Part shown: positions 5,634 through 18,800 of the stretch, in pieces
Layout: every line of letters starts with the position of its first letter
How positions within the stretch are numbered: position 1 is the stretch's first letter
Notes under the pieces: model-generated
Seen by the model: the letters and a program-made list of their open reading frames with translations, nothing else
The model's database searches: none
Told to the model about the DNA's origin: nothing
Made by a program: the position numbers and the translations under genes
NCBI GenBank assembly: GCA_965218095.1
Contig: OZ244587.1
Location: forward strand, 2,848,001-2,912,000
Direction: 5' to 3'
Origin: Candidatus Poribacteria bacterium
GTDB taxonomy: Bacteria > Poribacteria > WGA-4E > PCPOR2b
Length of the DNA: 64,000 nt

Positions 5634-5743
5634 ACCAGCCTCCTTAGGATTTGTTAAGTTCCAAAACATAGAAATTTCTAAACCGTCCCTGTTTCCTATT
5701 ATTAAAACAGGCCGGGTCGAGGAATTTCATCTCGACCTCCAGA

Positions 5744-5953: not shown

Positions 5954-6808
5954 CTACGGGGAAACCGACTGGACGCAACGAAAACCAAAGTTATAAACAT
6001 TGCGACTTGGCTTCTGAGCGAAGCCCTGTCGGTGTGCACACCTAAACCAATTCGCTATCTCATACCAAGACCCGCCACGCACGACACGCCGACTATGAAA
6101 TCCTGAAGAAGGGCCTTTCGGGCTCCGTTTTGGGGAGTTTTGATAGTAATCTGGACGATACCAATCATAGCACCATTCCTCGACATTTCCCTCCATGTCG
6201 TAAAGCCCATAGCCGTTTGGCGGATAGCTCCCTACAGGCGTTGGGTGCCCAACGTTGTTATTGTAGTTTGTCTTCGTTTCGTTAGGGGGGTCATCTCCCC
6301 ACGGGTATTTCTTTCCTTCCAAACCACCCCGCACGGCTTTTTCCCACTCCGCTTCGGTTGGTAGGCGCTTTCCAGCCCACTCGCAATACTTCACCGCTGA
6401 CCCCCATGCAACGCCTATAGCCGGTTGATTGGGTTGGCCAAATCCGGGAAGTTCCAGGCTCCAATGATCCCGTTTACCACGTCCCGTTGCATCTAGGAAC
6501 TTTTGGTACTGCACATTCGTCACTTCGTAGATATCCATGTAAAACGCATCCACGTAGACGGTGTGGACGGGTTTTTCGTCATCTTCCCCCTCGTCACTAC
6601 CCATTTGGAACTCGCCGGCAGGAATCAGCACCATCGGTGTGCCATCTTTACCCGTGATGCGTTTCGGAATCTTCCCCTGCGCCGATTCGCTCTGAGGCTC
6701 TGTCCCTTCATCGGAACTGAGCACCATCGTCAGGAAAATTGAGAAAAACAGAAAAATCAATGAACACAAAGAAATGGCTAAGATACTTTTGTCTTTCATG
6801 GTAAACAC
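5954..6808 (-). CDS. FGE-sulfatase (SUMF1/EgtB/PvdO) domain protein with N-terminal anchor
   Basis: [47 protein letters not shown]. Confidence 0.93.
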   Translation of the reverse strand: MFTMKDKSILAISLCSLIFLFFSIFLTMVLSSDEGTEPQSESAQGKIPKRITGKDGTPMVLIPAGEFQMGSDEGEDDEKPVHTVYVDAFYMDIYEVTNVQYQKFLDATGRGKRDHWSLELPGFGQPNQPAIGVAWGSAVKYCEWAGKRLPTEAEWEKAVRGGLEGKKYPWGDDPPNETKTNYNNNVGHPTPVGSYPPNGYGLYDMEGNVEEWCYDWYRPDYYQNSPKRSPKGPSSGFHSRRVVRGGSWYEIANWFRCAHRQGFAQKPSRNVYNFGFRCVQSVSP

Positions 6809-8182: not shown

Positions 8183-9997
8183 ATGAAACTACTAACATAC
8201 CTTGAGGAAAGCACATTTCGCATCGGGATTCTGACCGTTCGACCGGACACATCGGAGCCAGTTGTCATCGACATCCATGATGCAGTTTCTCTGCTTGAGC
8301 AGCAGGCCCATCGTATTTATTGGCGCACACCGTGGAAGGGACCGTGGGGAACCCTGACAGCCCCATCAGACATGCTCGATATTCTTGGCTACGGCCGCCA
8401 GGCAGTCATTGCCCTGGAGGACTTAGAGCGAACGCTCTGGAACCTTGCCCGCACGGTGGATGGCGCCTGGGTCGACACAGTGCTCAATACCCCTGAAGGG
8501 ATCCACTGGCAGCCACCCATCCCCGAACCCCCTTTCTACCCCTTCATCAGTGGAAACACCCAGGTGATGGCCCATCAGCGTACTCCTGTTCCACCGTGGC
8601 AGGTGCCTGCGACACGCCTGCGGCCGATCACCGCGATCATCGGGCACAAAGAACCCCTCTATGCCGATGAGAACGATAACGTGAGTTCCGATATGGAGTT
8701 GGGCATCGTAATTGGGCCAGAGGCGAAAAACGTCGGGGCAGACACCGCGATGGACTATGTCTTTGGCTATACCATTTGCAACGATACGCGGAACCCCATC
8801 TACGGGGCGAAGACGGCGCCATTTGGATCCGTCACTGGCGTCCGCATGGGGGGAATTGCTACTTGTGACAAAGGAGGGGATGGGTGCGGGCCAATCGGAC
8901 CGGTCATCACCACCGCCGATGAGGTGGGGAGTCCACACGATCTGGAGGCTACAGCCTGGTTCAACGGGAAGCTGCGCGTGCAAGCGCACACGAGTGCCTA
9001 CTACTATAACGTCCGGGATGTGGTCGCCCATTTTGCTCAACTGATGACCCTGCCCGCTGGCGCCATCATCGGTATGGGCGCCTGTGGCTACGATGGCCAT
9101 GCGGTACACGGCGCCTTCCGGCAACCGGGGCATAACGTGGCTGCGGTGGAATTCGACCGGGTAGGACGATTGGAACACCCGGTGGCCTACGTGGATGATC
9201 CGGAGCGGCAAGCGGCGGGCAAACAGAGCCGGTATCTTGCCCGCCGGGAGAAGTTGGGGTTAGGAGGCGTGGCGCAGCCAGATCTCACCCCGAGCGACAT
9301 CCCGGCGATCACGCGCAGCTTCTAGGCGCTCTCCGACAATGTTGGCAGCACACCGCTGCATAAGCTGCCAGCGCCGCATCTGTATCCACGTCACAGCCTT
9401 GCCGGGACCGATACCCTCTTGATTCTACCTCAACATGCACGGCGGTTGGAGATTAGTTGCGAACTGGCGGGCATCATCGGGCCACAACCTGTCTACCGGC
9501 CGCCACTGGCGGATATACCGGCGCTTCTGCTCGGGTTCGGTGTCATCATCTCTGTGATGGATATGTCGATGGTCGACTCCTTTCCTGGGGTGAAGACAGA
9601 CGGGGTCATCCGGTTTGCGACCTATCAGTGTCGCTACTCGGATGGGTGCAGCCGGATTGGAGGGGGCACCCCGATTGCCGGTGGGAGTGCGGCGCTGGCT
9701 GGTGCAACGATGGCCCTGCAGGTAGGGGACGCCTCCGGTGAGACGCAGTTAGTCGGTGAATACGGGACCTCGGTCGAAGAGGCGATTGCCTGGATCGCTG
9801 ATGGTATCACCCTTCTGCCGGGGGATGTGGTATCGCTCGGTCCAAGTAAGGCGACGCTAACCATCCCGGCTGAAGATCGGCTGGCTCCCGGCACCACGGT
9901 CGTGGCGTCTATCGCTGGGATAGGGGAGATTCAGGTAGAGTTGGTCGATCAGCGCGACTTGAGCATCAAGCCATGGCCATGGCCGTTAATACCTTGA
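8183..9997 (+). pseudogene. Two-domain fumarylacetoacetate hydrolase family protein interrupted by in-frame TAG (9323-9325)
   Basis: ELGIVIG..YVFGYTICND..GPIGP..TLPAGAIIG; the second FAH domain (CELAGIIG, TLLPGDVVSLG) continues in the same frame. Confidence 0.8.
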
Positions 9998-10110
9998 TGA
10001 TGATGCGCCGGACCTGTGGTTCCAGCAACCAATGAGATTCACTTATCAAACAACCGGGAGTTACGCACTTCATGAAGAAGCCGAGATCAACCGCGTAACT
10101 CCTAACAACA

Positions 10111-11010
10111 ATGAAGGAGAAGTCAATTATGGGACACAAGTATTCCGTAATTCTTTGCACCCTGGCTGGGAGCGGAGGCGACGTTTGGGAGAAACCGCGT
10201 GAGGTGCTTGAGACGATTGCCGGTGCGGGTTATGATGCCGTTGACATGGATGCAGAGCCGGACAAAATAGACCCACGGCGGTTCAAGGAAGTCACAGACA
10301 TCGCCTTCTCCCTTGGTCTGAAAATACCAGCACTCATCGGTGCCTGGGCCACTTGGCACGCCGGAGAAGGCAGAGACCTGGCATCGAGCGACGATTCAGT
10401 ACGAAGCCATGCCGTAAACTATGCCAAAAAGTGCATTAATCTGGCTGCCAGTTTTGATGAACCACCCCTATTTGAAATTGTCCCCTGTCCTGTTCAACCG
10501 GAGTACCCGGTTTCCAGTGTGCCACGCGACATCCTCAGGCACAACTTCATGAAAGCTGCCACAGAGATTGTCGCATACGCCGGGGATAGAAACGTCTCCG
10601 TGGCAATCGAGCCCGTCAACAGGTTTGAGGCCCATGCGGGCTTCTTAAATAGCATCGAGGAGGCCATGAGCATCGTCGAAGAGATCGGCGCAAAAAACCT
10701 GGGTGTGCTCGCCGACTTCTTCCATGTCAATATCGAAGATGCGGCGCTCACTGATGCGTTGAGGCTGGCGGGCAGTCGGCTGATGCACATCCACTTGGCC
10801 GATAGCAACAGACAGGCGCCCGGCACCGGGCATATTGATTTTTTACAGGTGATTCGAGTGCTGAACGCCATCAATTTTACGGGCTACATGTCCCTCGACA
10901 GCGTGCCGGCCAAACCGGATTGGAAAACATTAGTAGAGGAATCCATCCGCTTCATGAAGCAGATGGAGCAGACAGCAGCGTTGCAGCAGAGCATCGCCGA
11001 GATGCACTAA
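10111..11010 (+). CDS. Sugar phosphate isomerase/epimerase (xylose-isomerase-like TIM barrel)
   Basis: IEPVNRFE, ADFFHVNIED, HIHLADSNRQAPGTGHIDF. Confidence 0.92.
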   Translation: MKEKSIMGHKYSVILCTLAGSGGDVWEKPREVLETIAGAGYDAVDMDAEPDKIDPRRFKEVTDIAFSLGLKIPALIGAWATWHAGEGRDLASSDDSVRSHAVNYAKKCINLAASFDEPPLFEIVPCPVQPEYPVSSVPRDILRHNFMKAATEIVAYAGDRNVSVAIEPVNRFEAHAGFLNSIEEAMSIVEEIGAKNLGVLADFFHVNIEDAALTDALRLAGSRLMHIHLADSNRQAPGTGHIDFLQVIRVLNAINFTGYMSLDSVPAKPDWKTLVEESIRFMKQMEQTAALQQSIAEMH

Positions 11011-11057
11011 TACCGATCTAGGATTGAAATTCCGATAATGAGCGAAAGGAGGATTTT

Positions 11058-11627
11058 ATGATGTTGCGTTTGCTACTGGTGGTTTTGCTTCTCGTTATAA
11101 GTGTGACCTTGGCGGGCGCACCGCAGGCTGACAAGCCGCCGAATGCACTGCCAGATTTAACGCCGCGGGTGGCTGAACCGAAAGCCGAGCCGAAATTCCG
11201 TGTTGAGATGGTAACAGATGATGATGAGGTCGATTTAGATGCAGCGAGCTACATCAAGCGGGAATTACGCAGTTTGGGGGATGTAGAAATCGTTTATGAG
11301 GGGGCAGAGTGGAAATTGCAAGTTCTAGCTAACGAGGATAAAACGAAAAGTGGTCGTAAAATAGGATATTCCATAGCAGTTGCCTTTACAAGGCGTATAC
11401 GCGATAGCTACCCTAATGTGTTTGACTATAATGAGTTACGAAAGTTACTATCTACCGATGTCGTATTTGATTTTGTAGAAATAAGTGTTAGTTATGAGTT
11501 TCAGTCCCTTTACCTCGGGGGTGGGGGTACTGCTGAATTGGACTTAATATGTAAGAATCTTGTCACCACGTTTGATATAAAGCATCTTGAACCAGAGCGT
11601 AAGAAGCGTGTTGAAAATGTCCGCTAA
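11058..11627 (+). CDS. Hypothetical secreted protein (cassette-like)
   Basis: AAGGAGG RBS, signal peptide; stop TAA lies inside the left arm of site 11617. Confidence 0.75.
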   Translation: MMLRLLLVVLLLVISVTLAGAPQADKPPNALPDLTPRVAEPKAEPKFRVEMVTDDDEVDLDAASYIKRELRSLGDVEIVYEGAEWKLQVLANEDKTKSGRKIGYSIAVAFTRRIRDSYPNVFDYNELRKLLSTDVVFDFVEISVSYEFQSLYLGGGGTAELDLICKNLVTTFDIKHLEPERKKRVENVR

Positions 11628-11657
11628 GGGTCGTTATCGGACATTAAGGAGGATATT

Positions 11658-11732
11658 GTGAAAAGGATAAAGGCAATTGGACACTTGTTGTTTAGTTTTC
11701 TTGGGCGCATATCGCGCTGTGAGCGTGTTTAG
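11658..11732 (+). CDS. Possible 24-aa peptide
   Basis: AAGGAGG RBS and GTG directly after site 11617-11644. Confidence 0.3.
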   Translation: MKRIKAIGHLLFSFLGRISRCERV

Positions 11733-11813
11733 TGAACCCTCGTTGTCACCGTAACTGTTTTTGAGGCTCAATCTTAACCCACCCCTGTGTAAAATTCATT
11801 GGAGGAAAACGCT

Positions 11814-12317
11814 ATGAGATTCTTTTTTTGTGTGATTGTGATATTGTTGTTGATTGTTGGTTGTGAAAGTTCCGAACAAGTGAATGAGATGGCACCTGAG
11901 CCAGAAGCGAGTGACATGGCACCGGAGCCTACCCCTGAAAATAACTGGGTGGTTGAGTTTATTAAGCCTGAGTGTTGGGCGGCTGTCCCGTCCAATGTGG
12001 ATTGGGAATTGATTGCAACGCTCCAGCGGAATCCGTTAAAGCCCGGAGCGTTTTATATTTTTCCAGAACAAAAGGAAGCAATCAACGTTGCGTACCGTGA
12101 AGGGAAGCATTTCATCTTTGAAATAGGGCGTGAGTACAAAGAAGATTTAGGCTCTAAGATCCGGCACTACATTATACAACCAGAGATACCTTACCAAGAT
12201 AAAGATAAAAATCCTTTGCTGTTGCATTACGAGAAGGAAGGAGGTTTCAAGGACGAGCATCACAGATACTTCTTTATTTCAGTTGGTTGGTACGCATCTT
12301 TGAGGAAGGATCTATGA
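11814..12317 (+). CDS. Hypothetical lipoprotein
   Basis: GGAGG RBS; lipobox LIVGC; short MAPEP repeat. Confidence 0.75.
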   Translation: MRFFFCVIVILLLIVGCESSEQVNEMAPEPEASDMAPEPTPENNWVVEFIKPECWAAVPSNVDWELIATLQRNPLKPGAFYIFPEQKEAINVAYREGKHFIFEIGREYKEDLGSKIRHYIIQPEIPYQDKDKNPLLLHYEKEGGFKDEHHRYFFISVGWYASLRKDL

Positions 12318-12455
12318 TGATGGAGATATATGGAATACCCCAGAGGTAGGCTTGGTTGACCATCCTAAAAGCGGTGTTATCGGACAGGGAAATAGTTTCA
12401 TCGAGGAATGGGTGCGGTTGTATATTTATGTTAGTCGTGATTAGAAAGGAGAGAT

Positions 12456-12818
12456 TTGATGCCAAAGAAGAAAACTGGCGAATTGACAGTGGTTCATACG
12501 TTTGCTATTAAGCCGTCGCAGTTGAAGGAAATTAGACAAGCGGCATTTGATAGAGATATGTCTATCTCGAAGTATATTTGTAATGCGCTTCGGTACTATC
12601 AGACGGGTTTGATTCTTTTGACTGATGCGGCAAATCTATCGTTTGTGTTAGGGACATTGAAATATATGCCTCGCTATCCTTTAGACGATGTGAGAGTGGG
12701 CGATTTTGTCCTTTATGCGTCTGATGCCCCACTGGAGGCAGACGTAACCCATGCGGCGTTGGTTCAGGGTGTTCAACGGGTAGGCGATAATTTCCGTCAG
12801 CAGATAATTTCTCGTTGA
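12456..12818 (+). CDS. Putative ribbon-helix-helix DNA-binding protein
   Basis: HTFAIKPSQLKEIRQAAFDRDMSISKYICNAL fits the RHH pattern; AAGGAG RBS. Confidence 0.55.
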   Translation: MMPKKKTGELTVVHTFAIKPSQLKEIRQAAFDRDMSISKYICNALRYYQTGLILLTDAANLSFVLGTLKYMPRYPLDDVRVGDFVLYASDAPLEADVTHAALVQGVQRVGDNFRQQIISR

Positions 12819-12941
12819 TATCCATTGCTAAAAAATGTGACAGAATTGTAGGTGGTGAAACCGTCTCAATAAAGCGTTTTTATTGAGAAACCATGCGCTT
12901 GACCTCTCGGAACGGAACGGTCGTCAAGGACATATTAACGC

Positions 12942-13067
12942 TTGATTTTTTGTATTGCGAAGTTGCATGAGGAATCTCTGAAGTCGAACAAGTCCGTGTC
13001 AAAGATTATTCGTGAAGGGCTGGATCTCTATTTTGAAAGAGAAAGGAAGCGCCGGGTATTGCGGTAA
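12942..13067 (+). CDS. CopG-like RHH small protein (41 aa from TTG, or frameshifted from ATG 12893)
   Basis: IAKLHEESLKSNKSVSKIIREGLDLYFERERKRR; below the ORF-track cutoff. Confidence 0.5.
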   Translation: MIFCIAKLHEESLKSNKSVSKIIREGLDLYFERERKRRVLR

Positions 13068-13136
13068 TACCCGACGGCTTCCGGATGCTATTTGCGAGTT
13101 GCAGCGGGTGGTGTCGGTGCGTATTCCGACGGCTAC
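13035..13136 (-). ncRNA. Candidate ~100-nt counter-transcript RNA
   Basis: Minus-strand TTGACA (13172-13167), 18 bp, TAGAAT (13148-13143); ends in hairpin 13045-13082 plus TTTCTCTTTC. Confidence 0.5.
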
Positions 13137-13552
13137 TCTATTATTCTACAACACTTTCGGCTTTGGTGTCAACCCCAAAACTACTAATAATGTTCGGCAA
13201 TAAACATTGTCGGGCGTTCTTAATTGTGCTAAAATTATGGTAGAAAAGTTTTTGGTGGAGGTTGTTTACTGGTCGCAGGATTGGCGTTATCCTTTAATAC
13301 GCATTATCGGACATATTCCTGTATCTAACCGCTTGTGCCAAGGTATCAAGGCATAATCGAAAGACAGACGCTCGCCTTACCAGAGCCAAAGCCCAAACGA
13401 CGCTTTTTCCGATGGTTGTAGCCCTCACTATGCGCGGACGCAAGCCCTTTGTGATGAGTGGTTCGTGGACATTGCGGACCGAGAGTCCAAGGATATCCGG
13501 TAACAGGTCTTATCGGATATTTTTCTGATATAAATATAGGAGAAATTCTATT

Positions 13553-14124
13553 ATGAGCAACAGAATCATGACAGGCAAAAATAGCGAACTCAAAAAAGTT
13601 GTCGCGTACACAGACGGAGCTTGTAGCGGCAATCCGGGACCTGGTGGCTACGGAGTTGTCCTTCTATACGACAAACATGAACAAGAGCTATCCGAGGGGT
13701 TTCGGTTAACAACCAATAGTCGCATGGAAATGTGGGCTGCTATAGCTGCACTAGAAGCCCTCAAACCCCAGAAGTGTGCAGTAACAATATACTCGGATTC
13801 AGAATTCTTGGTTAATAGTGTATCACAGGGCTGGGTGTATAAATGGAAAGAAAATGGTTGGAAAAACAAAAATATCAAAAATAAGGAGGTTCCGAATACC
13901 GACTTATGGATGCTACTATTAGAATTGTGTGAACAACATTGCTACTATTAGAATTGTGTGAACAACATGAAGTTAAGTTCGTGTGGGTGAAAGGTCATGA
14001 TGGCAATCCCGGTAATGAGCGTGCGAATCAATTATCAAAGAAAGCGTTAGATCGAGAAAATTTAGGCATTGATAAAATCTATGAAGCAGAGAAAGTTCAA
14101 ATGCCTCAGCCGACTTTGTTTTAA
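13553..14124 (+). pseudogene. rnhA: Ribonuclease HI, frameshifted by a 29-bp tandem duplication
   Basis: YTDGACSGNPGPGG, TTNSRME, YSDS, WVKGHDGNPGNERANQL; duplication 13911-13939/13940-13968. Confidence 0.9.
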
Positions 14125-14259
14125 TCTGCGTAATACAGCTTATGGCAGTTGGCATTCTTTCGCGAGGGAGAAGAGTGTATGGCGTACCTGTCAACTGCCG
14201 CCAAAAATAGTCCGATAAATGCCATTATCGGACAACCTTCCAAAAAGGAGGGATAGACC

Positions 14260-14550
14260 ATGAACCAAAAAACCCTTTTGATAGCCATAGCGACCTTGAT
14301 AGTGGCAATCTTTGCCTTTGCTCAAGTCTACATCATTTTCACAGTTACAACTATCAATGACCGAATCAATAGCGTGGACCAACGGCTAACACACCTTGAG
14401 ACCCGCTTTGATAAGCGATTTACGGCTATTGACCAACGTTTTACAGACCTTGAAACCCGCTTTGATAAGCGATTTGATCTCATTGAAACCCGGCTCGATG
14501 CGCTCAACCAGAACTATATTGATCACCTAGCACACCATATCAAGAAATGA
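14260..14550 (+). CDS. Small membrane-anchored coiled-coil protein with an 18-aa internal repeat
   Basis: AAGGAGG RBS; TM helix followed by DQRxTxLETRFDKRF twice. Confidence 0.75.
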   Translation: MNQKTLLIAIATLIVAIFAFAQVYIIFTVTTINDRINSVDQRLTHLETRFDKRFTAIDQRFTDLETRFDKRFDLIETRLDALNQNYIDHLAHHIKK

Positions 14551-14915
14551 GTAAGTTGAACCAAAACCACAAGGGAGATATACGTCCCCACGACCCTTTG
14601 TGGCGAAACTTCAAAAGAGGGGGATTTGACAGGAGGCCATTTATGTTTTTGCGTGTTGACGGAGGAGATTATGAAAATGTGATCAATTTAGATAACGTTG
14701 TTAATATCGCAACTCGTTTAGTATCCGAGGGCAACTGTTCCATTCAGGTTTTTATGGTGGATGGTCAGGAATTCACAATTTTCAATAGCGATGAAAAGCG
14801 GTGTATGGCGGTTACTGAGGCGCTTTGGGAATTTATTTTTAATGCTACTCAAGGAGGACCTTCGATAAGCCTAAGCTCTCTTATTAACAAGGCTATCATG
14901 AAAAATATCCGATAA
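14547..14915 (+). CDS. Hypothetical protein (alternative start ATG 14643)
   Basis: AGGAGG before 14643; stop TAA lies inside the left arm of site 14905. Confidence 0.6.
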   Translation: MSKLNQNHKGDIRPHDPLWRNFKRGGFDRRPFMFLRVDGGDYENVINLDNVVNIATRLVSEGNCSIQVFMVDGQEFTIFNSDEKRCMAVTEALWEFIFNATQGGPSISLSSLINKAIMKNIR

Positions 14916-15351
14916 TGAGATGTTATCGGATATTCATTCGATCAATAGTAAAATAAACCCCTGTCAACCGCTGAGCTAACAAAAAGCGAAGTGTCCGATA
15001 GGATCGGCGAAGATACTGTTATGGTAGGGTTTTGACGATGTACCTTTTTGAAAATCGCCCTTTTCAACTTGAACAACAACACGAAAATAGACATCTGACA
15101 GAAAGCAATGCTCCCAATAGAAACCGATAAATTAGTCCTATCGCTCCTACAGAGCTAGACAATGTAACGGAAGACCGCTATCTATAGACATTTCGACCCT
15201 ACGGGTCAAAAATCTACCCCTATTAGGGAGATATAGAGGGGGGCTTATCAACCGTGCCAAACGGGAAAAAGCAAACCTAAGAACCAGTATAAGAGTGAGG
15301 GGGGAAGTCTTGGTCGGATGGATATGATGTGGGCTCTTTGGTGTTTCAACC

Positions 15352-15754
15352 GTGAACCTGGCAGGAAGATGGGAAGTGAAAGAGAATATGCCAACAGGAA
15401 GAGTGACTCTTGCCACGAGCGTGGGTGATGGGGAGATTTATGCCATTGGAGGACACGGCGTATTACGGGTGGACATCGGAGGAGATCGCAATGACAATTC
15501 GTTCCATAACGACATTCCTAACGCTTCTTGGCGCCATCGCGTTAATCGGTTGCGCCGATAATCCCACAGACTTGGAAAATTCAGCACAGCTCGCGGACAC
15601 GAAGATTGCTTTTTTGTCGGACCGCGATGGCAACCCTGACATCTATGTGATGAACGCCGACGAGTCTAATCCCGTCAACCTCACCAATCACCTAGAAGAC
15701 GACTTTTCTCCCTCTTGGCTTCCGGCGGACTCCAACGCTAACATGGGACATTAA
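15352..15754 (+). pseudogene. Juxtaposed fragments: a Kelch repeat stub and a truncated TolB/PD40 lipoprotein
   Basis: WEVKENMPTGR..GEIYAIGG; ALIGC lipobox; IAFLSDRDGNPDIYVMNAD..PSW. Confidence 0.6.
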
Positions 15755-15804
15755 CTCTGATGGTCCACTATCAACGGGGGATTCGCTGATCCTGAAGCCT
15801 AGGT

Positions 15805-18800
15805 GTGACAATGAGAATTTTGTCAAATAAAATCGACGTCATGAAGCAATTCTGCTGGATTTTCGCCTTATGTGCTGTATCGGGCGTCACAATTTTCGGC
15901 GTGATTGCACAAAGAAGCCCCGCTCAGTCTAATGAAAATACCCACCCACTTGTGCGAGATGTTCGCATTATTCCTGCGCCCATCACGGAATCAGTCAATT
16001 CCCAGGAGAAGTTGACGATATCGACGCCCCATACATCCAGAGATTGGCAGTCCATTATCAAATCCGTAGGCATCCAACCCGATTCGGAAAAATGTGTCGA
16101 TTGTCACTTCGAGGGACAATCCCCGACACAAGTACATCCGGGAAACCATCTGCGCCTCCATTCCCCTGATATATTTGGCTGTATCCTTTGCCATGGTGGG
16201 GATGCGCAAGCCACCGAGACGCAAGCAGCGCATTCCTCTGCGAAGGCATTTCCCTTCATGAGGGGACGCCAAATTGAAGCGAATTGTGGCAAATGCCATA
16301 CCGAGCCTACGGTGCCGGGTGCGCATTCGCTCTCCGGTGGACGATTTGTCCTCAATAGATACGGCTGCGTGACCTGTCACGACCTGCCCATAGAAATTCC
16401 GGCCGCACGATATGCCCCCCGTCTTGATTATATTGGCAATAAAGTCACCAGGGAATGGCTGGGGGATTGGCTTGAAGATCCAACGGTTTATCTTCCGAAA
16501 TCGAAGATGCCCAAAATTGAGGGAGTGCACGCGAGTGAGCGTGACGCAATTATCGAATTTCTTCTGACCTTACGGAATGATGCGCTATTCCAACCGATTG
16601 CTGGGAAAGGAAACGCCGGAAATGGAGAGAAGCTCTTCACCGCGGAAGAATGTCAATCGTGTCATGCCGTACAAGGCGTCGGTGACAAGATTGGTCCCGC
16701 ACTGGATCGGGTTGGGGAGAAGGTGAACCGCTTGTGGCTCATGAACTACCTCCGAAATCCGGCAAAGTTCCATCCAAACACGAAGATGCCGGAGTACGAG
16801 TTTTCAGATCAAGCGATCTTGGATCTCACCGAGTATTTACTGACGCATGTTTCCGATGGGGTAACCGTTTTGGAAAAATTTCCAGATGTTTCGCCCAACC
16901 CGACTAAAGCCTGTGAAGGGTTCAAGCTGTACATCAATAAGGGGTGCGCCCAGTGCCACGGGATTACGAAATATATGAAGGTGAACATCACCGAGCAGAT
17001 CCGGAAAACAGAGATTCACGAAGTGATTGAGCGGATTCAGACACATCGGGGGAGGGGGGCCAAAGTCCCAGAAATCGATATTCCAGCATCGGATCTGGAA
17101 TTGATGAAGAGCGCCCTTTTAGCGATACAACAAAATGACATCTATAAAGATCTCTCATACAATTTGGCGGAAGGCACGTTGGGAAACCCAAATCGATTTT
17201 TAGAATCGTTCTGGCAGTTTCCAATAACCCCCCAAGGTGAGCCGCCAGATTATTACAATGAAACGGTCGCGAAACTTTCACCGGAGTCATGTGGAAGTTG
17301 TCACATCAAACAGTGGGAGGACTGGAAAACAACCCGTCATGCAATGGCGATGGGGCCTGGGGTTTGGGGCGGGTTAATCGGGGCCGCGCCCGATTTCGTC
17401 GAGAGTTGCTCGGAATATCACGTGCCATTGTCCGAACAACACGAATATTTGCCAGCGTCAGATGGAGGATACGCTGAAAATCAACAGTATGACGCACAAC
17501 TCCAATCGCACGGGATTACCTGTGCCGCCTGCCACCTTCGAGGACATCAACGCTTTGGGCCTTCTTTCTCGGAAACCGCGGCAGCGGCAAGTATCTTCGG
17601 TGAGGGACATCATGGGGGAGCAGTTGTGAGTCGTGCGTATCAGGATTCGGCTTTCTGCAAATCGTGTCACCAATTCGAGGAGGGTGAGGCGAGTCTGAAC
17701 GGGAAACTTCTGGAAAACACATACAACGAATGGCTCCAAAGCCCCCATGCCAAAAACGGTGAAACCTGTCAGTCGTGTCACATGCCAGGGCGCCAACATC
17801 GGTTTCGAGGCATTCATGACCCCGAAATCGTACGAAAAGCCGTAAAATTGAGTGTTCAGATGAAAAATCAGCGGGAAAGGATCGAAGCCGAGATTCAGTT
17901 GACGAATGAGGGAGCAGGTCATCACTTACCGACATACGCGGCGCCGGCGATTTTTGTCACTGTGCGACTGCTGGATTCGGCTGGAAATCCCATCCCCAGA
18001 ACAAAGCAGGTGCGGGCGATTCAACGCCGGGTGCCTTCAAGCCAGGACCGAGAAATATTCGATACTCGCATCCCCGCCGGAGGAACTTGGATCTATGATT
18101 ATAAAATCTCCCGTCCTGAACGCGCCGAAACCCTTGAGCTCTGGATTGATGTGCATCCGGACCATTTTTACAACGGATTTTTCAAGGCATACCGCGCCAA
18201 TAGGGCAGCACAACCGTACATTGATAAAGCCCTTGAGAGCATTAAACAGAGCCCGTACCTGTTGCTGACGAAGCACATCCCCTTGGATGTTTCTTCATCT
18301 CAAGAGACTGCAACCCAATCTCTTGAAACAGCAGAAAGCTATAACAATCTAGGGGTTGCCTACCAAAAGCGGGGGGAGTTGGAGGAGGCGATCGGAGCGT
18401 TCAAAACGGCGATCAGTATTGACCCGAACCTGGCAGAAGCACATGTCAATTTGGGGAATGGCTATGGCATGCAAGGCAGGCTCGACGATGCCCTTGTAGC
18501 GTTTAAGGAGGCAATTCGCATCGACCCAAACCTCGCGGGGGTGTATAGCATCTGGGACATATCTACGGTATGCAAGGCCGGCTTGATGAAGCCATTGTCC
18601 AGTATAAGAAGGGGATTGCTATCAACCCTGACTATACAACAGCACATTATAATCTTGCCTGTGCCTATTCTCTCAAAAATGAGAAGACTTTAGCTATAGA
18701 AACCCTTCAGAAAGCCATAACGCTAGATCAGAAATACATTGAAATCTCCAAAACGGATAGCGATTTTGATAATATCCGTGAGAGTCGAGAGTTTCAGCAG

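Follow-up and report, generated by a model that had tools for sequence, protein, structure and literature searches.

The stretch analysed here (hereinafter the window: 64,000 nucleotides, bases 2,848,001–2,912,000 of the 6.35-Mb single-contig chromosome of a Candidatus Poribacteria bacterium; GenBank assembly GCA_965218095.1, contig OZ244587.1) carries, between positions 11028 and 15001, an array of short, co-oriented open reading frames (ORFs) separated by sites in which two 11-bp arms enclose a short spacer. A reading made from the letters alone (hereinafter the sequence-only reading) had described this array as an integron-like accumulation of gene cassettes, punctuated by seven full, symmetric sites of the Xer/dif type and served by a single tyrosine recombinase supplied in trans. 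The nine site sequences that it quoted, full and half sites together, are all present where it placed them. Six of its seven full sites held up; the remaining one, at 13190, is a decayed copy with about three mismatches per arm. So counted, the array comprises six 11-6(7)-11 sites along with the decayed copy and the two half sites (Table 1). The spacers all differ from each other, and the stretch is AT-rich (GC content of 42–45% as against 54–61% immediately upstream), both as previously described. The TAA stop codons of the ORFs at 11058–11627 and 14643–14915 sit within left arms, and a ribosome-binding site (RBS) with a start codon comes after the sites at 11617, 13493, and 14208. An integrase is absent from the window, in which none of the eight PF00589 matches of the genome falls.

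Searching the window with the pattern TCCGATAA-N6-TTATCGGA, with up to three mismatches allowed, returned five matches, all of them at 11620–14232, against an expectation of 0.29; none of 100 shuffles reached this number. The site at 14905 (14905–14933) escapes the pattern because its spacer is 7 nt long. The arm TTATCGGA by itself occurs 11 times in the window (2.2 expected), with nine of these copies inside 11031–14930. In a genome-wide scan with a position-weight matrix we recovered 12 full sites scoring at least 20 bits in the 6.35 Mb, five of which lie in the 3.3-kb array stretch; the reversed genome yielded none, and three first-order Markov simulations yielded one, zero, and zero. As the matrix was trained on the window arms, its scores for the window sites are circular, while those for sites elsewhere are independent. 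The genes that adjoin the sites form no fixed regulon; the sequence-only reading had held that a motif scattered genome-wide at the promoters of fixed genes would point to a repressor operator.

A single arm consensus, TTATCGGAYAT, accounts for both sides of the sites, and distinct XerC and XerD arms are not seen. The right arm is conserved in all six good sites (15.9–18.3 bits), and the left arms of the same sites range from 2.4 to 17.7 bits. At 12360, the left arm scores 2.4 bits vs 15.9 for the right, and at 13287, 7.7 vs 18.3; because these left arms are poor and the right arm is the conserved one, the array sites are not truly symmetric. Hence, the symmetry originally ascribed to the sites is a property of the home site of the recombinase described below, whereas those of the array include degenerate left arms. 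Judged by arm quality, the window sites share one orientation, with no alternation of C- and D-type orientations. The layout of a full site plus a nearby half site, with which the array ends on its right, is also found beside the recombinase gene and, in other genomes, where arrays end.

Table 1. Sites and genes of the array (window positions; aa, amino acids; nt, nucleotides).
Feature	Position	Strand	Remarks
Left boundary half site, left-arm type AATTCCGATAA	11028..11038	+	17 nt past the stop of the AP_endonuc_2 gene; no right arm after it
Module gene c1, 189 aa, N-terminal hydrophobic signal-like segment, no family match	11058..11627	+	Stop TAA in left arm of 11617 site
Full site ATGTCCGCTAA-gggtcg-TTATCGGACAT	11617..11644	+	Recombination junction
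Module 2: 24-codon ORF remnant (11658–11732) and lipoprotein-like c2 (11814–12317, 167 aa)	11658..12317	+
Site CCATCCTAAAA-gcggtg-TTATCGGACAG, degenerate left arm	12360..12387	+	In relatives, this position belongs to the 3' part of c2
Gene c3, 119 aa, no family match	12459..12818	+	5' region linked to c2 in G017, G013, G022
Decayed site ATGTTCGGCAA-taaaca-TTGTCGGGCGT	13190..13217	+
Site TTATCCTTTAA-tacgca-TTATCGGACAT, poor left arm	13287..13314	+	Followed by 178 nt without ORF
Full site ATATCCGGTAA-caggtc-TTATCGGATAT	13493..13520	+
RNase HI gene, sole PF00075 match of the genome	13553..14124	+	Between two sites
Full site TAGTCCGATAA-atgcca-TTATCGGACAA	14208..14235	+
Gene for 96-aa membrane-anchored coiled-coil protein	14260..14550	+
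73-nt conserved non-coding element with hairpin	14563..14635	+	RBS at its end
Gene c7, 90 aa from ATG behind RBS	14643..14915	+	Stop TAA in left arm of 14905 site
Terminal full site ATATCCGATAA-tgagatg-TTATCGGATAT, 7-nt spacer, perfect inverted arms	14905..14933	+
Half site GTGTCCGATAG	14991..15001	+	57 nt past the terminal site

The Xer-like recombinase and its home site

The best of the eight PF00589 matches (134 bits, E-value 1.1e-38, together with SAM-like N-domains) is a tyrosine recombinase of 301 aa, encoded on the minus strand at genome positions 860,652–861,557, 2 Mb from the array. It scores below the NCBIfam cut-off of every named-Xer equivalog (XerC, 194.9 bits vs a cut-off of 335; XerD, 192.5 vs 330; XerA, 180.8 vs 220; XerS, 103.8 vs 267), and likewise below those of the integron-integrase models (TIGR02249, 86.6 vs 265 bits; PRK15417, 48 vs 435 bits). 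The remaining full-length tyrosine recombinases of the genome score no higher than 67 bits with any Xer model. The nearest solved chains to the protein are XerA and XerD, and across 12 orthologues the residues R145, K172, H248, R251, H274, and Y283, which we take to be the catalytic R-K-H-R-H/W-Y set of tyrosine recombinases, are invariant.

The start codon of this gene is closely preceded by two half sites and, beyond them, by a perfect full site, ATGTCCGATAA-gaatac-TTATCGGACAT (hereinafter the home site), whose arms are matched by those of the array; the Xer/dif-type identity of the array sites proposed earlier is supported. This four-arm layout of one palindromic full site and two half sites is present in 36 of 37 Poribacteria loci (protein identity of 55–82%), with the full site about 100–230 nt upstream of the gene in the same number, and half sites 13–18 nt ahead of the start codon in all 37. 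The exception is genome G019, in which 114 bp, the full home site included, were deleted between half sites in direct repeat. All members of the subfamily in public genomes come from these 37 loci, each in a Candidatus Poribacteria record. The next relative, 45% identical, comes from a Moorellaceae genome (L096) and has the palindrome GTTCCTATAA-N6-TTATAGGAAC along with half sites upstream; as this homologue has its own palindrome of the same design, the gene-plus-site design predates the phylum.

Among 40 relatives, an orthologue was found in 28 (56–82% identity; a single strong match each, with an E-value below 1e-100) and was not detected in the other 12, which are metagenome-assembled genomes (MAGs) 91–99% complete. 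The site pattern, with at most one mismatch, occurs 0–19 times per relative as compared to 0–1 times for the reversed-pattern control; in G008, G012, G026, and G035 the sole such site is the one adjoining the recombinase gene. From these sequences, we infer that the Xer-like enzyme is the single Xer of the clade and the palindrome its cognate site. If this holds, the Poribacteria recombinases would make up an Xer subfamily not described before, whose site is a simple palindrome and whose home region has an unusual four-arm design. As for a single recombinase supplied in trans, an Xer-like gene with these very arms is indeed encoded elsewhere in the chromosome; its action on the array we infer.

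Exchange at the sites and the contents of the modules

The window site at 11617, compared with a site at 5730 in G017 and one at 6535 in G013, shows homology that begins at the first base of the right arm; the three spacers (gggtcg, atccgg, and gtgcgt) and the DNA upstream are unrelated. A module found at two loci of G003 and in G014 (L036, L100, L103) shows the same right-arm junction. In a survey of junctions at 49 full sites in 26 loci, all 18 site pairs with a homologous downstream and an unrelated upstream flank switch from one state to the other inside the 28-bp site, although these pairs are not independent and the compared genomes are kin. The switch lies near the boundary of spacer and right arm where the spacers differ, and in the outer left arm where the spacer is shared.

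A hot spot of such variation is found in genus g4 beside a rhodanese gene (15 genomes; loci L025, L033, L116–L128), with serS on the other side in 13 of these genomes and not reached within 11.3 kb in two. The serS-rhodanese interval extends from 292 nt without a site (G021) to more than 11.3 kb, contains 0–6 full sites, and is largely different in content between genomes. Of the 335 distinct ends of homology blocks in this interval, 36 lie at most 12 nt from an arm boundary, where 4.9 would be expected; 1000 randomisations gave 16 at most. Three genomes (G007, G020, G023) share their left context up to the left arm plus four spacer bases, beyond which three different contents follow. A right-end module, consisting of the arm TTATCAGAYAT, about 80 nt, and the half site ATGTCCGATAA just before the rhodanese start codon, is present in 10 of the 19 genomes with a rhodanese match; the half site is 18 nt ahead of that start codon in G017 and is also found at the locus in other g4 genomes. 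Together, the right-arm junctions, the switches inside the site, and the g4 hot spot argue for the sites as places where DNA is exchanged between contexts, as the sequence-only reading had supposed. The ordered, co-oriented polarity that it likened to integrons is not general: in a crude test with mechanically called ORFs on other arrays, an ORF leaves the strong arm at 19 of 31 sites and the weak arm at 18 of 31, and the cassettes of other arrays sometimes lie head to head. In G019 (L009/L034), 1 Mb from the xer gene, two full sites with the same spacer stand inverted around a 4.4-kb segment encoding a DUF6785/DUF6784 protein and an FG-GAP/T9SS-tail protein, and this segment may be invertible.

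Elsewhere in the chromosome of the window, sites enclose defense genes. Two direct full sites at 5,427,483 and 5,433,017 flank a Type III restriction-modification (R-M) system (5,427,483–5,433,044; L003 8484–14045) that comprises a 661-aa methylase, a 191-aa protein, and an 898-aa Res subunit. Similarly, a PD-T4-4/PDC-M47 defense pair (595 and 179 bits) is located between sites at 1,161,189 and 1,163,626 (L002, 1,160,396–1,166,314), bounded by a full site and a hybrid site, ATATCCGATAA-gagaac-TTATCAACCGT; a closely similar one, GAGTCCGATAA-gaaaac-TTATCAACCGT, recurs in G016. The genome additionally encodes a second family of tyrosine recombinases (hereinafter family-2) with four paralogues; identity between family members is 45–76%, as against about 25% to the Xer-like enzyme. 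As a separate observation, CRISPR-like arrays with a 66-bp period occur at about 628 kb, 1,674 kb, and 5,600 kb of the genome, and their repeat contains ATGTCCGATAT, one base off the left arm of the site; the resemblance may be coincidental.

Related sites were also detected in viral sequences. Six viral contigs contain exact GTCCGATAA-N6-TTATCGGAC, where about one is expected by chance on a rough estimate. In three of these from IMG/VR (L131, L133, L134), a full site with a half site some 70–90 nt beyond lies beside phage-like genes for a Prim-Pol/DUF3987 protein, a Sak annealing protein, and methylases, and no recombinase was detected in the retrieved part of the three contigs. These may be Xer-exploiting elements of Poribacteria, a suggestion that we offer as a lead only.

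Within the window array, the RNase HI alone among the products has a reliable family match; no dependable assignment for c1, c2, c3, the coiled-coil protein, or c7 came from Pfam, NCBIfam, or PADLOC. Weak paralogues of c1 are encoded at genome positions 2,538,930 and 6,051,397. The 24-codon remnant of module 2 is conserved behind sites in G017 and G013, and relatives of c2 occur in other contexts in G017, G013 (twice), and G022. Compared to its homologues of about 200–263 aa in these three genomes, c2 is shortened: there c2 extends to the start of c3, while in the window a remnant coding for its C-terminal part comes after the site at 12360. This site thus interrupts a gene instead of delimiting a clean cassette. 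The RNase HI gene is frameshifted by a perfect 29-bp tandem duplication (13911–13939 = 13940–13968), which is present unchanged in a short-read contig of run X2. We considered whether it is a captured core gene, given a conserved site-free context in G016 and G003, and set this aside because the order of the genome is too scrambled to show capture. The coiled-coil gene has a copy of 85–89% identity in G009, directly behind a different site, another copy in G016, and four tandem copies in G021. The 73-nt element downstream of it is present three times in the genome (in the window, at 2,540,694, and at 5,434,244), each time near Xer-type sites, and also in many g4 arrays. It has no Rfam match and may be a shared leader or regulatory RNA; in the window, it is probably a leader for c7, for which no homologue was found. 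Close by the array, beyond its end, lie short repeats at 14961–15113 and 15141–15220, with an 88% copy at genome position 4,784,080, copies of 87–95% at 4,362,497 and 4,419,768, and more in other Poribacteria.

The DNA of window positions 9000–17500 matched the 40 relatives with its flanking genes at unlinked places, and 15 metagenome loci with a homologue of the AP-endonuclease (33–82% identity) have no neighboring gene in common with the window; a single arm-like 11-mer (13-bit threshold) was found among them. No empty-site allele of the locus was recovered from either set. In the assembled contigs of sequencing runs, on which the strain-level comparison rested, the flanks are represented in run X6 by contigs about 21–24x deep that differ from the window by about 1–5%, and the array interior is under contigs of 2–3x or uncovered, a coverage gap that we do not count as evidence. 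A 304-nt contig from X6 that matches 10811–11033 departs from the window over 81 further letters; it hints at a related strain that diverges at the left half site. A joint 13521/13523->14244 in runs X3, X5, and X6 was rejected as an excision product, the short side being 23–29 letters with many differences, and is read as the coiled-coil module of another organism behind a similar site.

A proposed mechanism and its rivals

On this evidence we favor, with moderate confidence, the interpretation of 11028–15001 as a set of chromosomal Xer-dependent modules, a single-recombinase variant of dif modules and of integrative mobile elements exploiting Xer (IMEX), on which the Xer-like enzyme would act in trans. 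Five to seven small modules would be joined by the 28–29-bp sites, each of two 11-bp inverted arms and a 6- or 7-bp spacer, and would have arrived or been reshuffled via site-specific recombination between such sites. The enzyme would probably maintain the chromosome at its own palindromic site, and at the array it would bind two arms per site and synapse two sites. With the exchange point at or beside the boundary of spacer and right arm, a module would therefore have a right arm at one end and a left arm plus spacer at the other. Given that partner sites differ entirely in their spacers and that their homology sets in with the right arm, we propose that only the strand pair cut at this boundary would be exchanged and that replication would finish the event, a route like that of IMEX and integron cassettes; degenerate left arms would then stabilise inserted modules. 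More speculatively, a full site with a half site 57–100 nt away might mark primary attachment regions. The array itself looks old, since its spacers all differ, some of its arms are degenerate, and three of its genes are damaged, and it is probably inert now.

Several observations weigh against this interpretation. All six spacers differ, which makes an ordinary two-step exchange between the array sites unlikely, and no circle, recombination product, or strain-level gain or loss was seen at the window locus. With c2 truncated, the RNase HI gene broken, a c3-like fragment remaining, two left arms almost lost, and one site decayed, the array may be a relic; moreover, the site at 12360 breaks a c2-c3 unit that three relatives have left intact. 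In the g4 interval, only about 11% of the mosaic block ends lie at sites, and these ends are non-independent and come from kin genomes. Family-2 integrases adjoin three other site loci in this genome. Seven of the 12 relatives in which no Xer orthologue was detected have at least one site (five in G001 and four in G033; G025 and G005 likewise have sites); these are MAGs 91–95% complete. It was not possible to assign the home site to a replication terminus: GC skew, which is almost flat, strand bias of long ORFs, and k-mer skew give no clear signal, and the bin at 850 kb comes 23rd to 47th among 128, with the flips of 7- and 8-mer skew being dominated by a repeat family near 3.1–3.8 Mb. Finally, there is no clear FtsK domain in the genome, where PF01580 has one marginal match of 25.7 bits. 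Archaeal XerA acts without FtsK, and the Xer-like enzyme, if it resolves dimers, may do the same.

The foremost competitor keeps the sites as genuine recombination sites and assigns catalysis to a mobile family-2 recombinase, so that the modules would be parts of integrative islands with Xer-like attachment sites. It draws on the positions of the family-2 genes: a fragment at 5,427,011–5,427,466 stops 11 nt before the perfect full site that opens the Type III R-M module, the copy at 5,389,933 has a hybrid site ahead of it, and the 323-aa copy at 1,165,349 lies 1.7 kb from the hybrid site bounding the PD-T4-4 module. The family is also multi-copy (0–15 per genome) and often pseudogenised, like mobile integrases, and in two high-GC viral contigs a similar palindrome stands a few hundred bases from a family-2 relative. 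However, family-2 copies do not track the sites: genomes with 7 (G014), 9 (G015), 12 (G036), 5 (G001), and 2 sites (G019) have no match at E≤1e-20, whereas G021 has 15 copies with four sites and G029 has 11 with two. No copy is present in the window, and every letter of the array arms agrees with the arms that are conserved next to the Xer-like gene. We regard this alternative as unlikely. That the palindromes are operators for the Xer-like or another dimeric DNA-binding protein, with no recombination at the array, would account for the half sites close ahead of the recombinase start in every locus and of the rhodanese start in G017, as well as for the several window sites immediately upstream of an RBS; it is improbable given the breaks of homology inside the site, both in the 18 informative pairs and at 11617, the overlap of sites with stop codons, their role as limits of variable DNA, and the lack of a fixed regulon beside them.

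Short intergenic palindromes might equally be REP- or MITE-like repeats, RNA hairpins, or terminators that have nothing to do with a tyrosine recombinase, and a terminator scan does flag two of the seven sites as terminator-like hairpins. The other five lack a T-tract after them on the coding strand, Rfam returned a single match in window positions 10000–16000, below threshold with E = 0.8, the chromosome has just 12 full sites, and 36 of 37 loci keep the linkage to the recombinase gene, making this explanation very improbable. A classical integron, or an integrase-less attC cluster (CALIN), is hardly conceivable despite the short, co-oriented, repeat-separated genes with RBSs of their own and the absence of an adjacent integrase in the window. 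The best recombinase falls far short of the integron-integrase model (86.6 vs 265 bits), no polarity rule holds across arrays, and the sites are 28–29 bp long with a TTATCGG core, whereas attC sites measure 57–141 bp and have the organization R''-L''/L'-R' with a GTTRRRY core; the sequence-only reading had excluded attC on similar grounds.

Returning to the Xer-dependent modules, a bolder version of that interpretation can be entertained tentatively, with more doubt than conviction: the single housekeeping Xer of Poribacteria would have turned into a general gene-capture system, one that evolved independently to do what integrons and dif modules do. Any Xer-type site of the chromosome would take up small circular modules, or phage-like elements bearing a full and a half site, through a one-strand exchange tolerating any spacer, and hot spots such as the serS-rhodanese interval and the window locus would stockpile defense systems and small secreted or membrane proteins for life in sponges.

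Comparison with known systems

Full-text searches of the literature found no article joining Poribacteria with tyrosine recombinases, integrons being co-mentioned only incidentally, and nothing relevant on Xer/dif-like chromosomal gene cassettes. With integrons, the window array has in common short cassettes that have their own RBS and are co-oriented, and stop codons within the repeats; the home site with its accessory half sites also recalls attI1 with DR1 and DR2. It differs from them in having neither an IntI-type enzyme, nor attC structure, nor an attI or integrase at the array, nor a general polarity.

Closer parallels come from systems that exploit Xer recombination. IMEX (CTXphi, VGJphi, TLCphi, the gonococcal island GGI, and LME-1) use the host Xer at a dif-like site with one degenerate arm; a single strand exchange is finished by replication, a mismatch of spacers is tolerated, and the degenerate arms stabilise the integrated state (PMC5357621). 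The window array resembles them in lacking an integrase of its own and in pairing one good with one degenerate arm. Unlike IMEX, which are phage- or island-sized and integrated at the chromosomal dif, it is composed of modules of 0.2–0.9 kb and lies 2 Mb from the home site, itself only a candidate dif.

Single-recombinase Xer systems with a gene-linked site are likewise known, such as XerS/difSL (PMC5357621; PMC9765430; see also PMC2731167), and XerL/dif of Legionella was revealed through a mobile element with a dif mimic (PMC5357621). As in XerS/difSL, XerH/difH, XerA, and XerL/dif, the Poribacteria system has one Xer-like recombinase and a near-palindromic 11-6-11 site, and this site is genetically linked to the recombinase gene, as in XerS/difSL. 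Unlike in them, the enzyme falls below the NCBIfam cut-offs for XerC, XerD, XerA, and XerS, two extra half sites stand between the full site and the gene, and many extra sites are distributed around the chromosome.

The nearest known system is the dif module of Acinetobacter, in which plasmids carry 28-bp XerC/XerD sites in alternating orientation (PMC13141974; PMC6449649; see also PMC7399989 and PMC12907356), with crossovers centered on the sites and, in the pdif events tested, identical or near-identical spacers (PMC13141974). The two share gene modules bounded by 28-bp 11-6-11 sites of the Xer type, an array without a dedicated recombinase for which the host Xer is presumed to act, the recurrence of a module in several contexts, the crossover lying at the sites, and a cargo of accessory or defense type together with some ORF-less modules and with modules fused through site decay. 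They are set apart by the single recombinase and single arm type of Poribacteria, with no obligatory C/D alternation, by the unrelated spacers of its partner sites, and by the chromosomal location in an uncultivated phylum of sponge symbionts as opposed to Rep_3/OrfX plasmids. If our interpretation is correct, the 28-bp site would provide a handle on the flexible gene pool of sponge symbionts, including its defense systems, in metagenomes. Further, the Xer-dependent shuffling of modules would extend beyond its essentially sole documented setting so far, Acinetobacter plasmids with XerC/XerD, and a chromosomal single-recombinase case would point to the dimer-resolution machinery having been hijacked for gene shuffling more than once.

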